From the NCBI RefSeq assembly GCF_018977255.1, contig NW_024704742.1, positions 67,334,001 to 67,398,000 on the forward strand: 64,000 nt of DNA, read 5' to 3'. Under the pieces are notes generated by a model that was not told the DNA's origin, ran no database searches, and saw only the letters and a list, made by a program, of their open reading frames with translations. The stretch's first letter is position 1; each line of letters starts with the position of its first letter. Below are positions 3,547 through 60,398 of the stretch, in pieces. The stretch comes from Callorhinchus milii (taxonomy: Eukaryota). The translations under genes were made by a program, and so were the position numbers.

Positions 3547-3687
3547 CTTGTGATTTGAGTTCATAATCCCATCATGGAGTTCAGAACCCACAATTTTTTT
3601 AATAATAACAATAATCCTTCATTTGATATAGCGACTTATCAGGTCTTTGAGACATTTCAAAGCACTTCATAGAATATACTGTAAAGT

Positions 3688-3784
3688 TCTGACTAAAGGT
3701 CATTGACCTGAAACGTTAATTCACTTTCCTCTCTCCAAAGGTGCTGCTTAACCTACTGAGTGTTCCCAGCAACTTCTGTTTTTG
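3688..3784 (+). mobile_element. Short Penelope-like insert with minimal hammerhead-ribozyme-like motif, nested in a SINE
   Basis: 11-bp TSD tactgtaaagt (3677-3687 and 3785-3795); CTGACTA-aaggtcattgacct-GAAACGTT motif; similar to 35347-35445. Confidence 0.75.
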
Positions 3785-4269
3785 TACTGTAAAGTGAATT
3801 GACTGTATATTTTGTAGACTAAACATAGGCGTGAGACCTACCAACTGAGCCCTTGTTGACAACACTGATCTCGAGGCTAAGATCAGGGGAAATTCTGGGC
3901 CTCGAGTCTTTGAATATTCAGAAACAGTAACAAAAGCACATTGAGGCTTTCTGGCACTCTGAGCTCTATCCCTCTGGGTTAGCCCTGCACACAATAGTCA
4001 AGATGTAATAGCAGCAATTAATAATGAGGTCCATTGTGAAGAAAGAGGATGATCCAGCGCATAAATTCTCCAAGCTCTGGGACACAAATTATGTCAGTCC
4101 AGTCCCTCACATCCTGCTCACTGCACATATATCTCCACACTCAATCAAGACAATTTCACTCACTGAGTGAGCACAGCTTCACGACTGATTATCTCCACAT
4201 GTTAACCTTGGCCCGAATTCTCTTCCTAATGCTCGTCTGGGTCCACAAAGGCAATATTTTTCATGGCCC

Positions 4270-19059: not shown

Positions 19060-22010
19060 TGTCTAGACTTTCGAACCTGTCTCTCCATCCTCTCTCACCA
19101 CCACTATAACCTGCATGAAGCCCACCATCTACTCCCTAGACCCCATCCCTACACCTCTCCTTACTTCCCAACTCCACCTCCTCACCCCTTTACTCTCAGA
19201 CCTCGTCAACCTCTCCCTGTCAACTGGCACTGTTCCCACCCCTCTAAAAACAGCTGTCATCACCCCTATCCTAGAAAAAAATCTTAACTGGACCCACCCT
19301 GCTCACTAACTACCACCCCATCTCCAACCTCCATTTCCTTTCTAAAGTCCTGGAAAGAGCTGTTGCTTCCCAGTTTCACTCCTTCCTCTCCTGCCACTCC
19401 CTTTATGAACTCCTTCATTCGGGTTTCTGTGCCGCCCACAGCACGGAAATAGCCCTGGTCAAGGTGACAGATGACATTCTGTCCATCTATGATCAGGGCT
19501 CCCGCTGTCTCCTCATCCTCCTCGACCTTTCCAGCAAAGCTGCCTTTGACACTGTGGACCACTCTATCCTCCTCCACTGCCTCTCCTCTCACCTTAATCT
19601 TCAAGATTCTGTCCTTAAACGGTTCTTGGAGGCAAAGGACAACCCCAGGCTTCTCTTTTCCACAACAAACCATCTCCTCCGTCCACCTTCCCATGCCTCG
19701 CCCATCCTCTCCTCAAACTCCAACTGTGAGGAGATGCTGGACTTCCTCAAATCCAAAATTGAGGGGATATGTTCAGCTACCTCTGCCCCGTCCACAGCCA
19801 CCCCCACATCACCTCTCTGTCATGAACTACCCCCCACCCATCCCCCACTATACTCCTTCGACCCCATCTCTCCCTCTTCCCTCACCACGACTGTCTGCAA
19901 ACTCAAACCCACCACCTGCTCCCTCGATCCCATCCCCACCTCTCTCCTCATCTCCCAGCTCCACTTTCTATCCCTTCTCCTGTCCGATGTCATCAACCTC
20001 TCCTTGTCCACCGGTTCAGTTGCCACCCCTTTAAAAACAGCCGTCATCACCCCCATCGTGAAAAAACCTTCCCTAGACCCATTCCTTCTCTCCAGCTATA
20101 GACCCATTTCTAACTTCCCATTCCTCCCCAAGGTCCTGAAATGATTTGTCACGTCCCAGCCCCACTCCTTTCTTTCTTGCCATTCCCTCTTTGAACCCCT
20201 CCAATCCGGCTTCCATGTTGCCCATAGCACGGAAACAGCCCTGGTCAAAAACACTAATGACATTCTGAACATCTGTGATCAGAGCTCCCTCTGCCTCCTT
20301 GTCCTCCTCGACCCCTCTGCCGCCTTCAACACTGTTGACCACTCCATCCTCATACACCGACTCTCCTCTTTACTTAATCCCCCAGAGGATCGAATTCAAG
20401 ATCCTCATCTTCACCTTCAAGGCCATTCACGGCCTTGCTCACTCCTACCTCTCCGACCTACTATCCCCCTACTTACCTACCCGTACCCTCCGTTCCTCTG
20501 GCTCCGGTCTGCTCCACATCCCCCGCCCCAACCGCCCTACCATCTGTGGCTGGGCCTTCAGCCTCTTAGCCCCTAGGCTCTCGAATTCGATCCCCCAGTG
20601 CCTTCGCCTTGCTTCCTCCCTTTCCTCCTTCAAGGCCGGTCTCAAGACCTTTCTCTTTGACCGTGCCTTCAGCTCCCCTCTTGATTCTCTACCCCCTCCT
20701 CGCTCCCTCCCTTCCCTCCCCTCACCCTGACCATTTCCCCCCTGCTCAGGTCCTGACCCAACTGTCCAGCGCCTTGGGACGTCCTCCCGACGTGAAAGGC
20801 GCTCTATAAATGGAATCTTGTTGTTGTTGTTGTTAATCTTCGCGGGCCTGCCCTTGCCTGGTTTGATTCCTATCTCTCTCACTGTCTCCACTTTGTTGCC
20901 TCCAACGGTTTCTCCTCCAGCCCCCGCACTGTCACGTCTGGCATCCCCTAGTGCTCTGTCCTTGGCCATCTCCTCTTTAATATCTACATGCTCCCCCTTG
21001 GTGACATCATCCGCAGACAAGGAGCCAACTTCCATATGTACACGGATGACACCCAACTCTATCTTTCTGCCTCCACCCTCAACTCCAGGACCACTCCTGC
21101 CCTGACAGACTGCCTGTTGGACATCAAGTCCTGGATGAGGGCAAATTTCCTACAGTTGAATGTGAACAAGACTGAGGCCCTCCCGATTGGCTCACTCCAG
21201 CGCCTCAGCACCTCAGGCTCTGAAGGCATCAACCTCCATGGTTGCACACTTCAACTCACCAAGCCAGTCAGGAACCCAGGTGTCTTGTTCGACCCTCAAC
21301 TATCTTTTCTTCCCCACATCCAAGCCATGACCCGCTCTGCCTTCCCTCACCTCCATAACATCACCTGACTCTGCCACTACCCTCAGGCCGCTGAAACTCT
21401 TGTTCATGCCTTCATCACCTCCAGGCTGGACTATGCAAATGCCCTGCTTGTCAGCCTTACCAACTCCTCCCTCCACAGGCTGCAGATAATCCAGATCTCT
21501 GCAGCCCGTGTCCTCTCCCGCACCAAACTCATTGATCCCATCTCCCCCATTGTCGACTGACTCCATTGGCTTTCTATCCATCAGAGGATCCAGTTCAAGA
21601 TCCTGGTCCTCACTTACAAAGCCCTCCATGGCCTCGCCCCACCCTACCTCTGTGACCTCCTAACCCCCTACCAACCCGCCCGTTCCCTCCGCTCAGCTGG
21701 CTCTGGCCTGCTCCATGTCCCCCAACCCACCGCACCACCATTGGTGGGAGAGCCTTCAGCCACTCTGCTCCCAACCTCTGGAATTCCATTCCCCAATCAC
21801 TCCGTCTCGCCCCCTCCTTAGCTTCCTTCAAGTCCCGCCTCAAGTTCCTCCTCTTTGACCGTGTCATCAGCCACCCTCCCTTCCTCTCCTTTCCTTTCCC
21901 ACCCCAACCCCAGATCGGGTCTGAAATGCTGTACACTGTCCAGCACCTTGGGGCGTCCTCCCGACGTGAAAGGTGCTATACAAATGTAATGTTGTTGTTG
22001 TTGTTGTTCA
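19060..22010 (+). mobile_element. Composite degraded L2 reverse transcriptase region: two overlapping fragments plus a nested young copy
   Basis: KTAVITPI.KKPSLDP...YRPISN.PFL.KVL, LLDLS.AFDTVDH.ILL, HMYTDDTQLY (YADD motif), FLQLNVNKTE; multiple stops and frameshifts; L2 tail at about 21935-22008. Confidence 0.9.
20380..20832 (+). mobile_element. Young L2 3' end nested in older L2
   Basis: Near-identical to 16310-16765; flanked by ttaatc at 20374-20379 and 20833-20838; host frame resumes NLRGPALAWFDSYLS. Confidence 0.88.
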
Positions 22011-22394
22011 GATATCAAATGCAAGGATTGTTATTATTATTATATTACCTCTCACATCGGCTCCACTTTGTTTCCACAACTGACTTCTCCTTCAGCCCCC
22101 GCACGTCTCGTGCGGTGTTCCTCAGGGCCATGTCCTCGGTCCTCTCCTCTTCAATCTGGACAAGGAGTCTGTAGTTCAGTGATGAGTGCACTCGCCTTGC
22201 AAACAAGAGACCTGGGTTTGATTACCGGCAGAGTAAAATCTTGGGCAAGTTTCCTTACTTCACACGCCTGATAATAATCCCTCAAGAAAAAAAAACAATA
22301 ATAATTTGGTCATTTTCAATCCACGACTGTTTATGGTGCACTGCTCTTTGTCGTGGATTGAATGTTTCTTGGGACGTCCTCCCGACATGAAAGG

Positions 22395-23215
22395 CACTTC
22401 AGGCACTGGCAGCATCAGAATCCAAGGATGCACACTCCACCTCACCAAGCCAGTCAGGAACCTGGGCGTCTTGTTCGACCTTCAGCTGTCTTTTCTCCCC
22501 CACATCCATACCATGACCCACTCTGCCTTCCCCACCTCCACAAGATTGCTCGACTGCTCACCCCTCAGGCCATTGAAACTCTCATACATGCCTTCATTAC
22601 AACGAAGCTCGATTATGCCAACACCCTGCTTGTCGGCCTTTCCTATTCTTCTTTCCACAAGCTGCAGGTCATCCAGAACTCTGCAGCTTGTGTCCTCTCC
22701 TGCACTAGGCTCCATAACCTCATCACATTCACCCTCGCCCAGCTCCACTGGCTCCCCATCCCTCAGAGGATCGAGTTCAACATTTTTGTCCTCACCTTCA
22801 AGGCCCTCCATGGCCCTCCATGGCCTTGCCCCCACCTACCTCTCCAACCTGCTAACCCTTTATCAACTTGTCTGCTCCCTCCACTCGGCAGGCTCTAGCC
22901 TGCTCCATGTCCCCTGCACGGCCCACCCCACCATCAGCTGTTGGGCCTTTGGCCTCTCTGTCACCACACTCTGGAACTTTATCCCAAATTCCCTTTGCCT
23001 CACTCCCTCCCTTGCCTCCTTCAATGCATGCCTCAAGATCCTCCTGTTCGACCATGCCTTCGGCCGCCCTGCTACCCTCTCTGTCCTCCACCCTCCCTGA
23101 TCCCCTCCTGCACCCCCCCCACCTCCCCCCCCCACAGCTCGGGTCCTAATTCCTGACTGTTCAGCGCTTGGGACTCCTCCCGACGTGAAAGGTACTTTAC
23201 AAATGTTATTTTGTG
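22395..23215 (+). mobile_element. L2 3' fragment
   Basis: VRNLGVLFD.QLSF.PHI and ETLIHAFITTKLDYANTLL motifs; L2 tail. Confidence 0.88.
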
Positions 23216-34990: not shown

Positions 34991-35256
34991 CTGCTCAGCA
35001 CTTGCTAGTACTGTAGTTTGATTCTGCAACTGCAGAATTGCTGGCAGGCACACAGGGGGGTGATGCATTCATTCAATTACAAATTAAATAGATATCTTTC
35101 AGATAATAATATTTTGGGGATACAGTTCATGAATAATTTGAGACATAATATATAGTAAATGTAATATGCTTGGAACATTGTGTATAATATAAAATATATG
35201 CAATTGGCTACCATGCCTCACCCATAAAATATATAGTCAAATTCACTTTACAGTAA

Positions 35257-35448
35257 CAAAACACAAAATACTGCAGATGCTGGAAATCTGAAAACAAAAA
35301 CAGAAGTCACTGGGAACATTCAGCAGATCAGGCAGCATCTATGGACAGTTCTGATGAAGGATCGTGAACCCGAAATGTTGACTCACTTTCCTTTCTCCAT
35401 AGATGCTGCCTGACCTGCTGAGTGTTCTCAGCGACTTCTGTTTATATT
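35257..35448. mobile_element. Penelope-like insert with inverted arms and minimal hammerhead-ribozyme-like motif, nested in a SINE
   Basis: 15-bp TSD ttcac(t/g)ttacagtaa (35242-35256 and 35449-35463); inverted arms ~35299-35345 and ~35396-35443; agttCTGATGA...GAAAtgttgact at 35347-35383. Confidence 0.8.
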
Positions 35449-35904
35449 TTCACGTTACAGTAAATTCTGTGAAGCGTTTTAAGATGTCTCAATGAGGCGT
35501 AATATCAAATGCAAGGATTATTATTATTGTTATTATAAAGAATCAGTCAACTTTGGATCTATACTTCCTAAAGCTTTCCACTCTGTTTTAGACTAATCCA
35601 TACAGAATTAATTTCTATCAACATCTCCATTATTGTAGCATGCGACAACCAGAATAGTGGAAGGCAAACTAGATGGACCTTGGTCTTTTTTTGTCCAGCA
35701 ATTCCTATGTTACTATGCTTTTTCCCTGTTCACACAAGACAATGTTGGTCAAATTGATGACCTTCATTGTTCTTGCTGCGGGATTGGACATTCCCTCTCT
35801 GCATGACAGAGCTCTGATCTGAAGTGTTGTGAGACGCACATCCTGTTTCAAAAGTTACATCAAAAGCTCTCTGGAAGTGGAAATTTTTGTTGTTGTTGAA
35901 GACA

Positions 35905-38399: not shown

Positions 38400-39720
38400 C
38401 GAATGAATTGATTTCAACATCCTCACTCTCGTCTTCAAATCCCTTCATATCCTGGCACCTCCCTACCTCTCTGACCTCTTTATTCCCCAACCCACTATCC
38501 ACTGCCTCCACTCAACTGGCTCCAGCCTCCAGTTTGTCCCTCGTGCCCTCTGTTCCATCATTGGTGGCCGCGCTTTTATGCCCTGAAACTCTGGAACACT
38601 CTTTCTCTATCCTTCCACCTTGCCCTCTCTTCCCCCATCTTCAGGTCGTAGCTGAAGACCTTCCTCTTCAACCGTGCCTACAGTCACTTCCCCCTCTACC
38701 CGGCTCAGCGTCAGGCGTCAGCGTCAGTCACTGTCAAGCGCTATGGGACCCTACCCTGTGTGAGGGGCGCTATATAAATGCAAGATGTTTAATTTAATTC
38801 ATGTGCAATGTGACAGCAGTCATGCACTTAATTCTTTCATTGTGTTTTGCTGCAGAGCTGTTTGTTGAGGCATTAAAGTAGGGGTGGTCATTTACCCATT
38901 TCTTCATGCTCTTCACAAACACACAGCCTCTGCATTTTACAGTGAATCCTGCACAGCGCATTGAGAGGTCCTCCCAACGTAAAAGGAACTACACCAAATA
39001 TAAGGATTATTATCATGACTTATCAGAAAAACAGCCTGAGTTTCTTGTTCAATGATCTCAAAGCCATTCATAAAATCGTGATGAAAATGCCATGTTTATC
39101 AGCAGAATCCGTGTGAGAATTATCATTGGAACTCTTTCACGCAGGTAAACAGAAGCTCGAAATCCGTGACTTATAACAACAACAATTTGCTTTCATATAG
39201 TGCTTTTCACCTCGGGTAATGTCTTGGAGTACTTTACAAAGAAAGACTTGGACGCTGAGCAAAGAAGTGAGAGAATGGCAAGTGGGAGGTGACCGGAAGC
39301 ATGTTCAAAGAGGTAGATGTTAAGTCAGGAATTAAAGACGGATAGAAAAGAGGTGAGGCGGAAGAGTAGAGGAAGGAATTCCAGAGATTAGGAGTATAGA
39401 ATGTGAAGGGTCAGCCACCGATGGTGGTGCGGATTGGTGACGTAAGCAAGCCCAAGTTTGCTGAGTGGAGAGGCACACATAGGGAGAGATAAAGAGATGA
39501 GGGTGAGGATCTTGAAATCGACCTACTGGGAGCCACTGGAGCTAGAGGGGAGATGACCAAAGGTACAATCGAAGCACAAAGTCTTCAGCTGAGATTTGAA
39601 GGTGGGCAGAGAGGGGGTGAGACGGGAGGGATTGAGGCAAGGAGCTCCAGAGATTTGGAGCATGGCCGCCAATGTTGCAACGAAAGGGATGAGGGACGGC
39701 AGAGGACCCGAGCCAGCTGA
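38400..39720. mobile_element. Degraded L2 3' fragments (38400-38790 plus; 39175-39720 minus)
   Basis: L2 C-terminal and tail motifs. Confidence 0.65.
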
Positions 39721-39770
39721 GTGAAGTGGAAGTGTAGCGGAGTGGGTTGTGAGCAGGGGAACAGGCTTAC

Positions 39771-40124
39771 CTGGCAGCACAGTGAGGAACGCACTCCTGA
39801 AGCTGTATCCCATGGTGTTTGCTCCCAGGCAGATGTACATGCCGGCATCCTCCTCCTTGGCTCGGGATATCATCAGTTTATTTAAGTAAGAGCCATCGGG
39901 CCGGGACCACACCTCTCCGGTCGGCAGCACCACAAATTTCTGGCCACCCACATCGATGGTGGAGTTGTATTTGTTCTCACTGCCGTACTCCACTCTCTTC
40001 AGCCACTGAATGACAGGTTTGACGTCACTCCGGACCTTACACTGGAAGGAGGTCGTTCCACCGTAATCCACCGTGGTGTTCACTGGGTGGGTCCCAGTGA
40101 GGATGGGTTTAGACCTGGTTGTCT
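39771..40124 (-). CDS. FGFRL1: FGFRL1 exon, Ig-like domain 3 (354 nt, phase 1-1)
   Basis: [48 protein letters not shown]...[26 protein letters not shown]; tttcag acceptor and gtaagc donor. Confidence 0.97.
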
Positions 40125-40949
40125 CTGAAAGGTGATAAGGATTTTTAATCCACTGTTAGTTACAATAATAATAATAATGCTTGCATTTGATACAGCGCCT
40201 TATCATGCAGTTGAAATGTCTCATAGCGCTTCACGGGATATACTGTAAAGTGGATTGACTGTATTTTGTGGGCGAAACACGGCAGCTAATTGCACACAGC
40301 AATGTGCCACGCAATGTGAAGATTGTAGCTGATTTCAATTGCTTAGACTCCAGCAGTACCCCAACACACACTCTGGGGTCCCCAAACCTTGGCTCTTGCC
40401 AACCTGTGCCTGTTACATATATAAAACAAGAGTTCACAGAGGAAGGGGGTTTAAAATAATAATCCTTGCATTTGATATAGTGCCTGTTATGTCAGGAGGA
40501 TGTCTCAAAGCACATCACAGTGTTCCCTGTAAACTATAATGACTATTTTTGTAGGCAGACAGCTATATCCCACAAACAGCCAGGAGCAGTTTATTAGGGG
40601 ATTGTTGGCCAGGACACTGGGAGAAATTGAAGGGGCTTCATTGTAACATCTCAGTTGAAGTACCGCACCTCTGATGGAGCAGTGCCAGCCTAGCCCATAA
40701 TCTCAAAGTTCCAACATGGGGCTCAATCCCACAACCTTCTCATTTGGGGGCGAGAGTGCTACCAAGTGAATCATGCTGAGACCTAATGTCAACTCATGAG
40801 GTGAAATTGCCAAAGAGGGTTGTATATAGAGAGTCCTGCATGTATCTGCCTTGGGTCTCTCTGGATCTCTGCTCGAGGACCCAGTTTTGGGGTCACTGGT
40901 GCCTGTTCGGAGAATGTCACCCGGCAAAAATGTGCCCTCTATATAATGG

Positions 40950-41430
40950 TATATAATAATCCTTGCATTTGATTTAGCACCTTATCTCGTCATTAAGACA
41001 TCTCAAAGCGCTTCACAGAATATACTGTAAATAATAATAATAATAATAATCCTTGCATTTGATATAGCGCTTTTCACGTCGGGAGGACGTCCCAAAGCGC
41101 TTCACAGAACACACTGTAAAGTGAATTGACTGTATATTTGTGGGCGAAACGCGGCAGCCAATTGCGCACAGCAATAAGTGAATTGACTGTATTTTGTGGG
41201 TGAAACGCACACATACAGTCGGGAATTGAGTGACCATTTCTTTTTAAGGGATTATTACTCCCAGAACTCGATCTTCCATTTGACTAACAACCAGGTTCCG
41301 AATTACTGCTAGGTAAACAGAGGCGTGTGGTGTTAAGGAAACTTGGCTAATGTTTCGTCCTGCCTGGGAATCAAATCCGGGTTCTCTTCCCTGCAAAGCA
41401 AATGCTCTAACCAACATGCTAAAGTATCTA
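40950..41430 (-). mobile_element. SINE family B with a younger SINE 3' fragment nested at about 41031-41174
   Basis: Host breaks at tactgtaa and resumes aagtgaattg; the insert has a different tail variant (cacgtcgggaggacgtcccaaagcgc). Confidence 0.8.
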
Positions 41431-50162: not shown

Positions 50163-50510
50163 TAATAATAGTAATAATAATAATCCTTGCAGTTGATATA
50201 GCACCTTATTACGTCATTGAGATGGCTCAAAGCGTTTCACAGAATATACTGTCAAGTGAATTTACTGTATATTTTGTGGGCAAAACGCGGTAGCCAATTG
50301 TGCACAGCAGTGTCCCACAAACAGTCGTGGATTGAGTGACCAAATTACTTTTTTTTTGAAGGGATTATTACCCCCGGAAATCAAACTGCCAATCGGCTAA
50401 CAATTGAGTTCCTAATTACTGCTAGGTAAACAGAGACATGTGGAATAAGGAAACTTGCCTAAAATTTCGCCCTGCCCGGGAATCTAAACCAGCTCCTCTC
50501 GCTTGGAGGC
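50163..50510 (-). mobile_element. SINE family B ending about 40 nt from the Ig2 exon donor
   Basis: Family B tail, middle and partial head. Confidence 0.85.
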
Positions 50511-55324: not shown

Positions 55325-55850
55325 TAGGTTCTTAGTCGATTGGTGAATCGCTTTTCAGGGGTAGTAATCCCTCCAAAAAAAATTATAATAATTAGGTCAC
55401 TCAATCCACCACTGTGCATAATTTGCTGCTGAATTTTGCCCACAAAATGTACAGTCAATTCACTTTAATAATCCTTGCATAATCCTTGCATTTGATATAG
55501 CGCTTTTCACATCGGGAGGACGTCCCAAAGCGCTTCACAGAACACACTGTAAAGTGAATTGACTGTATATTTGTGGGCGAACGCGCAGCCAATTGCGCAC
55601 AGCAATGTTCCACAAAAAGTCATAGATTGAAAATGACCAATTTATTATTGTTTTTGTTTTTGGAGGGATTATTATTAGGCTCTGTGTGGAGTAAGGAAAC
55701 TTGCCCAAGGTTTCGCCCTGCCTGGAATTGAACTCAGGTCTCTCGCTTGCAAACCGAGTGCTCTAACCACTGAGCTACAGGACTCCACTTTACAGTATAT
55801 TCTGTGAAGGACATTGAGACATTTCAATGACATGATAAGGTGCTATATCA
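55325..55850 (+). mobile_element. SINE family B (5'-truncated) hosting an antisense family B copy at 55468-55785 that retains both head and tail
   Basis: 7-bp TSD cacttta at 55461-55467 and 55786-55792. Confidence 0.85.
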
Positions 55851-56602
55851 GATTTTAGGTGAATTTCTTTTCACACAGGCTGGACAGAGTGAGTGGGAGC
55901 CCCCCCACCCCCCACAGATGATGACACCCTCAGCCTAGCACTGAGTGGGGTTTCCCCTGCCTGGCGTCCCCCACAGTGTGAGATGAACTGACACTATGTC
56001 ACTGTGTACACTTTCCTGAGCAGTATTTTATACTCACCATGTGATGATCCTTGCATTTGATATAGCGCCTTATCATGTCATTGAGACGTTTCAAAGCGCT
56101 TCACAGAATATACTGTAAAGTGAATTGACTGTATATTTTGTTGGCGAAACACAGCAGCCAATTGCTCATTGGAGCAGAGAGGTCATAAGAGGAGCGAAAG
56201 AAGAGTTTAGGAGAATTTCTTTTCACACAGAGTTTTCTTGAGATGAGTAATGCAACTAAGGTGGTATAGGCAGAGTCCATTGTGGGTTTCAAGACGAAAG
56301 TCATCAGATATGTGAAGGATAGAGGCTTGAAGGAGTTTGGGCATAGGATAGGGCAGTGGGATTGAACGAACAGCTTGCTCTAAGAGATTATGCAGACTTG
56401 ATGGGCCGAATGGCTTCCTTCTGCTCTGTAAATTTCTATGATAGTCTGTGCCAGTACGTATGCTCCACACAAGCCTCCATCCCTCTTCATCCCCTCTCCT
56501 ATACTCTTCAATTCCTGTCTCTTTCATGTATGCATAGAAGTTATTTTAAAAACAGCAAAGTCTCGTTCTTGTCCTGATTTGACTCAGTTTGAAGTACTAT
56601 TG

Positions 56603-60088: not shown

Positions 60089-60398
60089 GGAGTCCCGTAG
60101 CATAATGGTTAACCCGCTTGCCTCACCTGGGTTCGATTCCGGGGCGGGGCGAAACCTTAGCCAAGTTTTCTTACTCCACATGCCGGGTTGCTTTCCGGGA
60201 GTAATAATCCATCCAGGAAATAAAATTGATAATTCAATCCATGACTGTTTGTGGGACACTGCTGTGCATAATTGGCTGCCGTGTTTCGTTCACAAAATAT
60301 ATAGTTAATTCACTTTACAGTATATTCTGTGAAGCGCTTGAGATGTCTCGAAGATGTGATAAGGCGCTATATCAAATGCAAGGATTATCATATTATAA
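60089..60398 (+). mobile_element. SINE family B
   Basis: ggagtcccgtagc...gggttcgattcc...ccttagccaagttttcttactccaca...tail. Confidence 0.85.

Follow-up and report, generated by a model that had tools for sequence, protein, structure and literature searches.

The question raised by this locus is whether so short an insert is a mobile element in its own right or the remnant of a longer one. It lies near the beginning of a 64,000-nucleotide stretch of the Callorhinchus milii genome, referred to here as the window. The first-pass annotation had taken it for a discrete, non-autonomous mini-retroelement, made by retro-insertion and bearing a minimal hammerhead of the Penelope type. The retro-insertion and the type of ribozyme are borne out by the target-site duplication, the empty sites, and the layout of the motif. 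The discreteness is not, as members of the family continue 5' of position 3685 and most also 3' of 3784, and a second locus has other ends and an inversion. The reading that we favor, with a probability of roughly 0.8, is that the insert was retro-copied, with 5' truncation, from the pseudo-LTR end of a Penelope-like element bearing an endonuclease, and that its minimal hammerhead is predicted to be inactive through a G8-to-U change. The features on which this reading is based are collected in Table 1.

Table 1. Position and strand of the features of the two insertion loci in the window
Feature	Positions	Strand	Remarks
Host SINE 3' tail, left part including left duplication copy	3601-3687	-	87.5% identical to window-majority tail, query positions 1-88
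Left copy of 11-bp target-site duplication	3677-3687	+	final 3 nt double as the first bases of helix I (microhomology at the 5' junction)
Minimal type I hammerhead	3685-3721	+	G8 to U at 3694; A-U at base of helix II; predicted cleavage after 3717
97-bp insert	3688-3784	+	hammerhead plus 67 nt past the predicted cleavage position; ends at the short (tail-less) 3' end
Right copy of 11-bp target-site duplication	3785-3795	+
Host SINE tail, right part	3785-3824	-	92.5% identical to window-majority tail; resumes at query position 78
Target-site duplication copy, second locus, 15 bp	35242-35256	-	14 bp if one T is given to the element; shares its starting position on the host with the first locus
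5'-truncated arm without hammerhead	35257-35346	-	reaches 38 nt further 3' than the first insert (tail of the Penelope type)
Inverted arm	35347-35448	+	CUGAUGA core intact; G-C at base of helix II
Other copy of 15-bp target-site duplication	35449-35463	-	1 mismatch

The first insert is framed by an exact 11-bp direct repeat and interrupts a host repeat that gives 70 BLAST matches across the 64-kb window, a density of about one host tail per 0.9 kb. At this locus the host is a minus-strand SINE with TTA repeats at its end. Some of its copies have tRNA-like heads, and the three matches that Rfam returns for the window at gathering score are all such heads. The host tail is consistent with the 3' tail that CmiSINEs and SacSINE1-CM have in common, to judge from the descriptions of these elements in PMC5499810. 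The majority of 25 uninterrupted host copies carries the 11-mer once (it is exact in 9 of the 25), and a joint in which contigs pass directly from 3687 to 3785, skipping 3688-3784, is found in all four sequencing runs. Therefore, the 11-bp repeat is a genuine target-site duplication, as had been claimed. It had also been claimed that the insert begins at the motif. The motif does stand at the start of the insert, but its first three bases fall within the left copy of the repeat. These bases constitute a 3-nt microhomology at the 5' junction, and as a result the duplication of the first locus is 8-11 bp long, depending on the side to which they are assigned. The same 3 nt also open the second copy at 35347. 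The segment around the target is weakly self-complementary, with antisense matches at 50238-50278 and 60289-60331.

The motif at the start of the insert can be parsed as a minimal type I hammerhead. Its helix I (5' strand 3685-3688, 3' strand 3718-3721) has three Watson-Crick pairs and one G-U pair, within the range of three or more pairs that characterizes minimal hammerheads of this kind. The catalytic core at 3689-3695 departs from the CUGANGA box in one base, the G8 to U change at 3694, which agrees with the single substitution that the first-pass annotation had seen. One extra base (A, 3696) lies between A9 and helix II; the second copy has it too. Helix II (3697-3701/3705-3709) has the five base pairs previously ascribed to it, all of them Watson-Crick. 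It opens with an A-U pair in the first insert, whereas the conserved pair elsewhere is G10.1-C11.1 and the second copy has G-C at this position. GAAA at 3710-3713 is followed by C-G, U16.1, and U17 (3717), so that the palindromic 15.2-16.2 step and an NUH cleavage site are both present and GUU is supported by the parse as the predicted cleavage triplet. The palindrome AACGUU had been described as helix III. It is present, but only its inner four bases, the palindrome ACGU at 3713-3716, make up helix III proper; the A and U that flank them correspond to the core A14 and the cleavage nucleotide.

Scans with hammerhead models gave a divided result. A minimal-hammerhead descriptor, with one core mismatch allowed, matches the window in one place (3689) and none of 10 Markov-1 random windows. 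Rfam, on the other hand, reports no hammerhead in the window at gathering score, and at E ≤ 10 it returns five weak unrelated matches and again no hammerhead. The folding energy is no better than that of shuffled sequences (z between -0.59 and 0.58). In nearest-neighbor cofolding an alternative dimer (-22.5 kcal/mol) is preferred over a double hammerhead (-5.1 kcal/mol), although these energies are weak evidence either way, as the model scores hammerhead cores as plain multiloops. G8 is the proposed general acid of the hammerhead (PMC6155905), and a G8C change abolished cleavage in the Penelope ribozyme of the anole (PMC11167929). A literature search found no published test of a G8U hammerhead. 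By analogy, the hammerhead of the first copy is predicted to be dead, in line with the earlier suggestion that this copy is probably inactive.

There is only one further locus of the family in the window, at 35242-35463. It consists of a 192-bp insert made of two head-to-head arms and flanked by a 15-bp duplication with one mismatch. The inverted arm (35347-35448) retains an intact core and has two mismatches in helix II and a CpG-type change in helix III. It differs from the first insert at 19 of 97 positions. The second locus lies about 4 kb downstream of an exon-like stretch on the minus strand (39526-40155) that encodes an immunoglobulin I-set domain according to Pfam, and for which the best full-length matches among solved structures are ectodomains of FGF receptors. 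The stretch presumably resembles FGFRL1.

The state of the family as a whole was read from sequencing contigs placed on 3662-3811 at 80% likeness. There were 3325 of these in run X1, 5437 in X5, 4139 in X10, and 808 in X11, counts which include matches to the host SINE. Runs X1 and X11 come from the organism of the window (X11 is presumed to be RNA), and X5 and X10 come from two other organisms. At 3694, G rather than U accounts for 74% of the depth in X1, 60% in X5, 57% in X10, and 76% in X11. At 3720, C rather than U accounts for 95%, 91%, 92%, and 97% in the same order, and helix I is thus fully Watson-Crick in the family majority. The family does not lack the CUGANGA/GAAA core, since G8 is the majority letter in all four runs and the box is intact at 35351-35357. 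Found in contigs from three organisms, the family is high-copy, and the dead core is a feature of this copy, not the state of the family. The CpG of helix III has decayed at 5-25% per position. The evidence for helix covariation is thin, as a single compensatory pair sets the two copies apart: the base of helix II is A-U in the first and G-C in the second. No variant of at least 5% occurs at 3697 or 3709 in the four runs, in a test biased towards the first copy. The first insert differs from the X1 read-majority letter at 8 of 97 positions, and for this reason the copy is considered to be old. Contig depth climbs towards the 3' end; it is a summed contig depth with edge effects and was not used as a count. 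The hammerhead pattern has no match in metagenome contigs and none in viral contigs. A mid-element pattern gave 47 metagenome loci and no viral ones, and these 47 were set aside as chance matches, as no alignment exceeds 35 bp and the majority of the loci have a high GC content.

The assignment to Penelope is based mainly on how the copies are inserted. Inverted 5'-truncated copies, a one-sided tail of 30-40 bp, and target-site duplications of variable length are described as hallmarks of Penelope insertion (10.1101/2021.04.23.441226; PMC3846280). The window holds a head-to-head inverted, 5'-truncated copy at 35257-35448, a one-sided tail of 38 nt at the second locus that is also seen in loose ends of contigs, and duplications of 11 bp at the first locus and 15 bp at the second. 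It is the match between the inversion, the one-sided tail, and the variable duplication on one side and these hallmarks on the other that argues for a Penelope end. Together with the microhomology, they also resemble the units of endonuclease-positive Penelope elements (Craig et al. 2021; Arkhipova et al. 2013, PMC3846280). In contrast to typical Penelope insertion units, only the last 100-140 bp are present here. The window contains no full-length copy in which the partial-tandem pseudo-LTR structure could be seen. No Penelope-like open reading frame was found among the 19 scanned of the 21 long reading frames in the window. The scan of these 19 gave one reverse-transcriptase fragment 16 kb away and one immunoglobulin domain. 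The former belongs to a decayed reverse-transcriptase region at 19275-23100 (RVT_1, E 4.6e-07), a C-rich stretch of the plus strand whose translation appears to hold a rearranged or duplicated segment of the enzyme. We take this remnant to be probably an L2-type LINE.

The ribozyme fits the same assignment. According to Cervera and De la Pena (2014, PMC4209133), minimal hammerheads of metazoan Penelope elements are for the most part found singly, in truncated copies dispersed over the genome, and on truncated Penelope ends they number thousands per genome in fish and amphibians. The motif described here shares with them the short helix I, CUGANGA followed by an extra base, helix II, GAAA, the palindromic C-G at 15.2-16.2, and the NUH site. 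It departs from their consensus in the G8U change of the first insert and in the A-U opening of helix II in place of the conserved G-C, although one published coelacanth motif also has A-U. The portion of its supplement text that was searched contains no shark or chimaera term. Titles and abstract openings on Penelope hammerheads in cartilaginous fish gave no description of this family (Repbase, Dfam, and most subscription journals lay outside this search).

A likely course of events can be outlined by analogy with the Penelope element of the anole, which in vitro has two internal start sites of reverse transcription and uses uncleaved RNA as a template (Frangieh et al. 2024, PMC11167929). The GIY-YIG endonuclease of a Penelope element would nick the AT-rich segment of the SINE tail, and the reverse transcriptase would start at the proximal of two internal sites, 67 nt past the cleavage position of the hammerhead; a start at the distal site, 38 nt further on, would yield the 38-nt tail. 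The template would be uncleaved or religated element RNA, because the insert spans the predicted cleavage position. The cDNA would then stop at helix I and be joined to the target through the 3-nt microhomology, giving the duplication of 8-11 bp, and neutral decay would afterwards have taken the copy about 8% away from the family majority. The motif of the parent element likely acts as a dimer by way of the ACGU palindrome, with activity that is probably low or assisted by protein, whereas the solo copy lacks a partner and has no known function. The family resembles Poseidon of the green anole in having two 3' ends a tail's length apart, both downstream of an uncleaved hammerhead, and in its AT-rich targets (PMC11167929). 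It differs in that the open reading frame of Poseidon starts inside the hammerhead, while no link to a reading frame was found in the window, and in that the start region of reverse transcription is described as AC-rich in the anole, whereas the 3' end here is U-rich.

Both loci of the window lie in the same host tail, each with a 3' end joined to it at the same position within 1 nt. They differ in the length of the duplication, the tail, the 5' junction, and 19 of 97 bases, and they therefore represent independent insertion events. Taken on its own, this coincidence suggests an addition to the Penelope reading, namely that insertions of the family favor one particular site of the SINE 3' tail, where the endonuclease recognizes a sequence. 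If insertions were spread uniformly, the probability of a shared junction would be 0.0004-0.0025 (53 of the 70 host matches span the site), although this is a post hoc value from two loci. Of six candidate breaks across host tails, four lie within the 14-bp segment that both loci use, and this segment may be a general AT-rich hot spot. The contigs do not lend support to a preferred site either: the 3' loose ends are long, with medians of 123-255 letters that do not match the stretch; of the 15 joints listed out of 29 and the 12 listed rows with letters in between, none rejoins the target after the tail; and only one of the 32 listed pieces (out of 14055) reaches 3795, with none going further. 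It should be considered that contigs break at high-copy SINEs, and the contig test of site preference thus under-detects. We regard the preference for one site as conceivable but unlikely, and a general AT-rich hot spot combined with a loose preference of the endonuclease is the likelier reading. Titles and abstract openings gave no report of Penelope elements targeting SINE tails, with most subscription journals outside the search.

Two other insertions were observed in the same 14-bp segment of SINE tails. A tRNA-headed SINE of about 318 bp lies in opposite orientation within another SINE tail at 55467-55853 (minus strand), with a clean 7-bp duplication. At 40953-41208 one SINE tail is split by a fragment of another, about 144 bp long and in the same orientation, resulting in a double-tailed SINE whose duplication is ambiguous (2-5 nt). 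Two of the six candidates, the split host copies at 17.2 kb and 25.7 kb, were dropped for want of a convincing duplication. A bolder proposal, which we find doubtful, is that a hammerhead-bearing Penelope family of cartilaginous fish uses its GIY-YIG endonuclease to home on the SINE-tail site, present in hundreds of thousands of copies, as a renewable safe harbor, and that stalling of the reverse transcriptase at the hammerhead leaves mostly stubs of 100-140 bp.

Instead of being a truncated copy, the insert could belong to a short (about 100-140 nt) discrete and non-autonomous derivative of a Penelope end that has its own RNA and is mobilized in trans, in the manner of a monomer-type retrozyme. 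What bears on this possibility is whether copies share fixed ends. In both hammerhead-bearing arms (3685 and 35347) the beginning lies no more than 1 nt from the opening base of helix I. The loose contig ends before 3685, which number 98 in X1, 84 in X5, 43 in X10, and 27 in X11, agree poorly with their consensus (0.38-0.46), and their agreement falls off fast. Moreover, animal retrozymes are reported to be Penelope derivatives with many monomers (10.64898/2026.07.22.740005). However, all four runs have a common C-rich continuation upstream of 3685, and at the other side the 3' ends of the arms in the window differ by 38 nt and one arm has no hammerhead, and neither end is thus fixed among copies. 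Loose ends behind 3783 and 3785, respectively, number 99 and 139 contigs in X1, 115 and 225 in X5, 73 and 215 in X10, and 28 and 39 in X11, and they start with a common longer tail (among the 24 listed of 569 loose-end rows). The window holds only three arms, none in direct tandem. The inversion is the pattern described for insertions of truncated Penelope elements (10.1101/2021.04.23.441226), and joints to the opposite strand like that of the second locus make up 4 of the 15 listed among 29 joints, in the two other organisms (B and C). We therefore judge a discrete element to be improbable. The 5' ends of copies may nevertheless cluster around helix I. Reverse transcription may preferentially stop at the ribozyme fold, or the shared start of the two arms may be a coincidence.

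A comparison with non-LTR retrozymes leads to a similar view. These are defined as tandem arrays with at least two hammerhead units (Li et al. 2026, 10.64898/2026.07.22.740005). The family described here is like them in being non-coding, in its type I hammerhead, and in its kinship with Penelope pseudo-LTRs, and they are reported in one cartilaginous fish. It is unlike them in that its loci are solo or inverted, each with its own target-site duplication. Membership was rejected for the window, in which no arm stands in direct tandem with another. The family may be listed in the supplements of the same paper.

A hammerhead likeness that arose by chance in a short repeat of another kind would agree with the missing Rfam match, the unremarkable folding z-scores, and the departures from consensus in one core and one helix II position, but this is extremely improbable given the empty random windows of the descriptor search, a family majority in which precisely the catalytic G8 and the pair in helix I are restored, and a second copy with the full core.

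The insert is most likely ordinary for its kind, a truncated Penelope end with a minimal hammerhead of an already described type. As it stands it has little consequence, as such stubs are known and the first copy is predicted to be dead. Its modest value is that of a clean natural record of the chemistry of Penelope insertion: dozens of empty SINE copies reveal what the site looked like before insertion, an uncleaved ribozyme is covered by the cDNA, and ends with a short and a long tail are found next to each other, in keeping with the prediction of the in vitro model of the anole element (PMC11167929). If the shared junction reflects a real site preference, the recognition site of a Penelope endonuclease would be definable from genome data alone, and the choice of target in a poorly understood class of retroelements would become directly testable.
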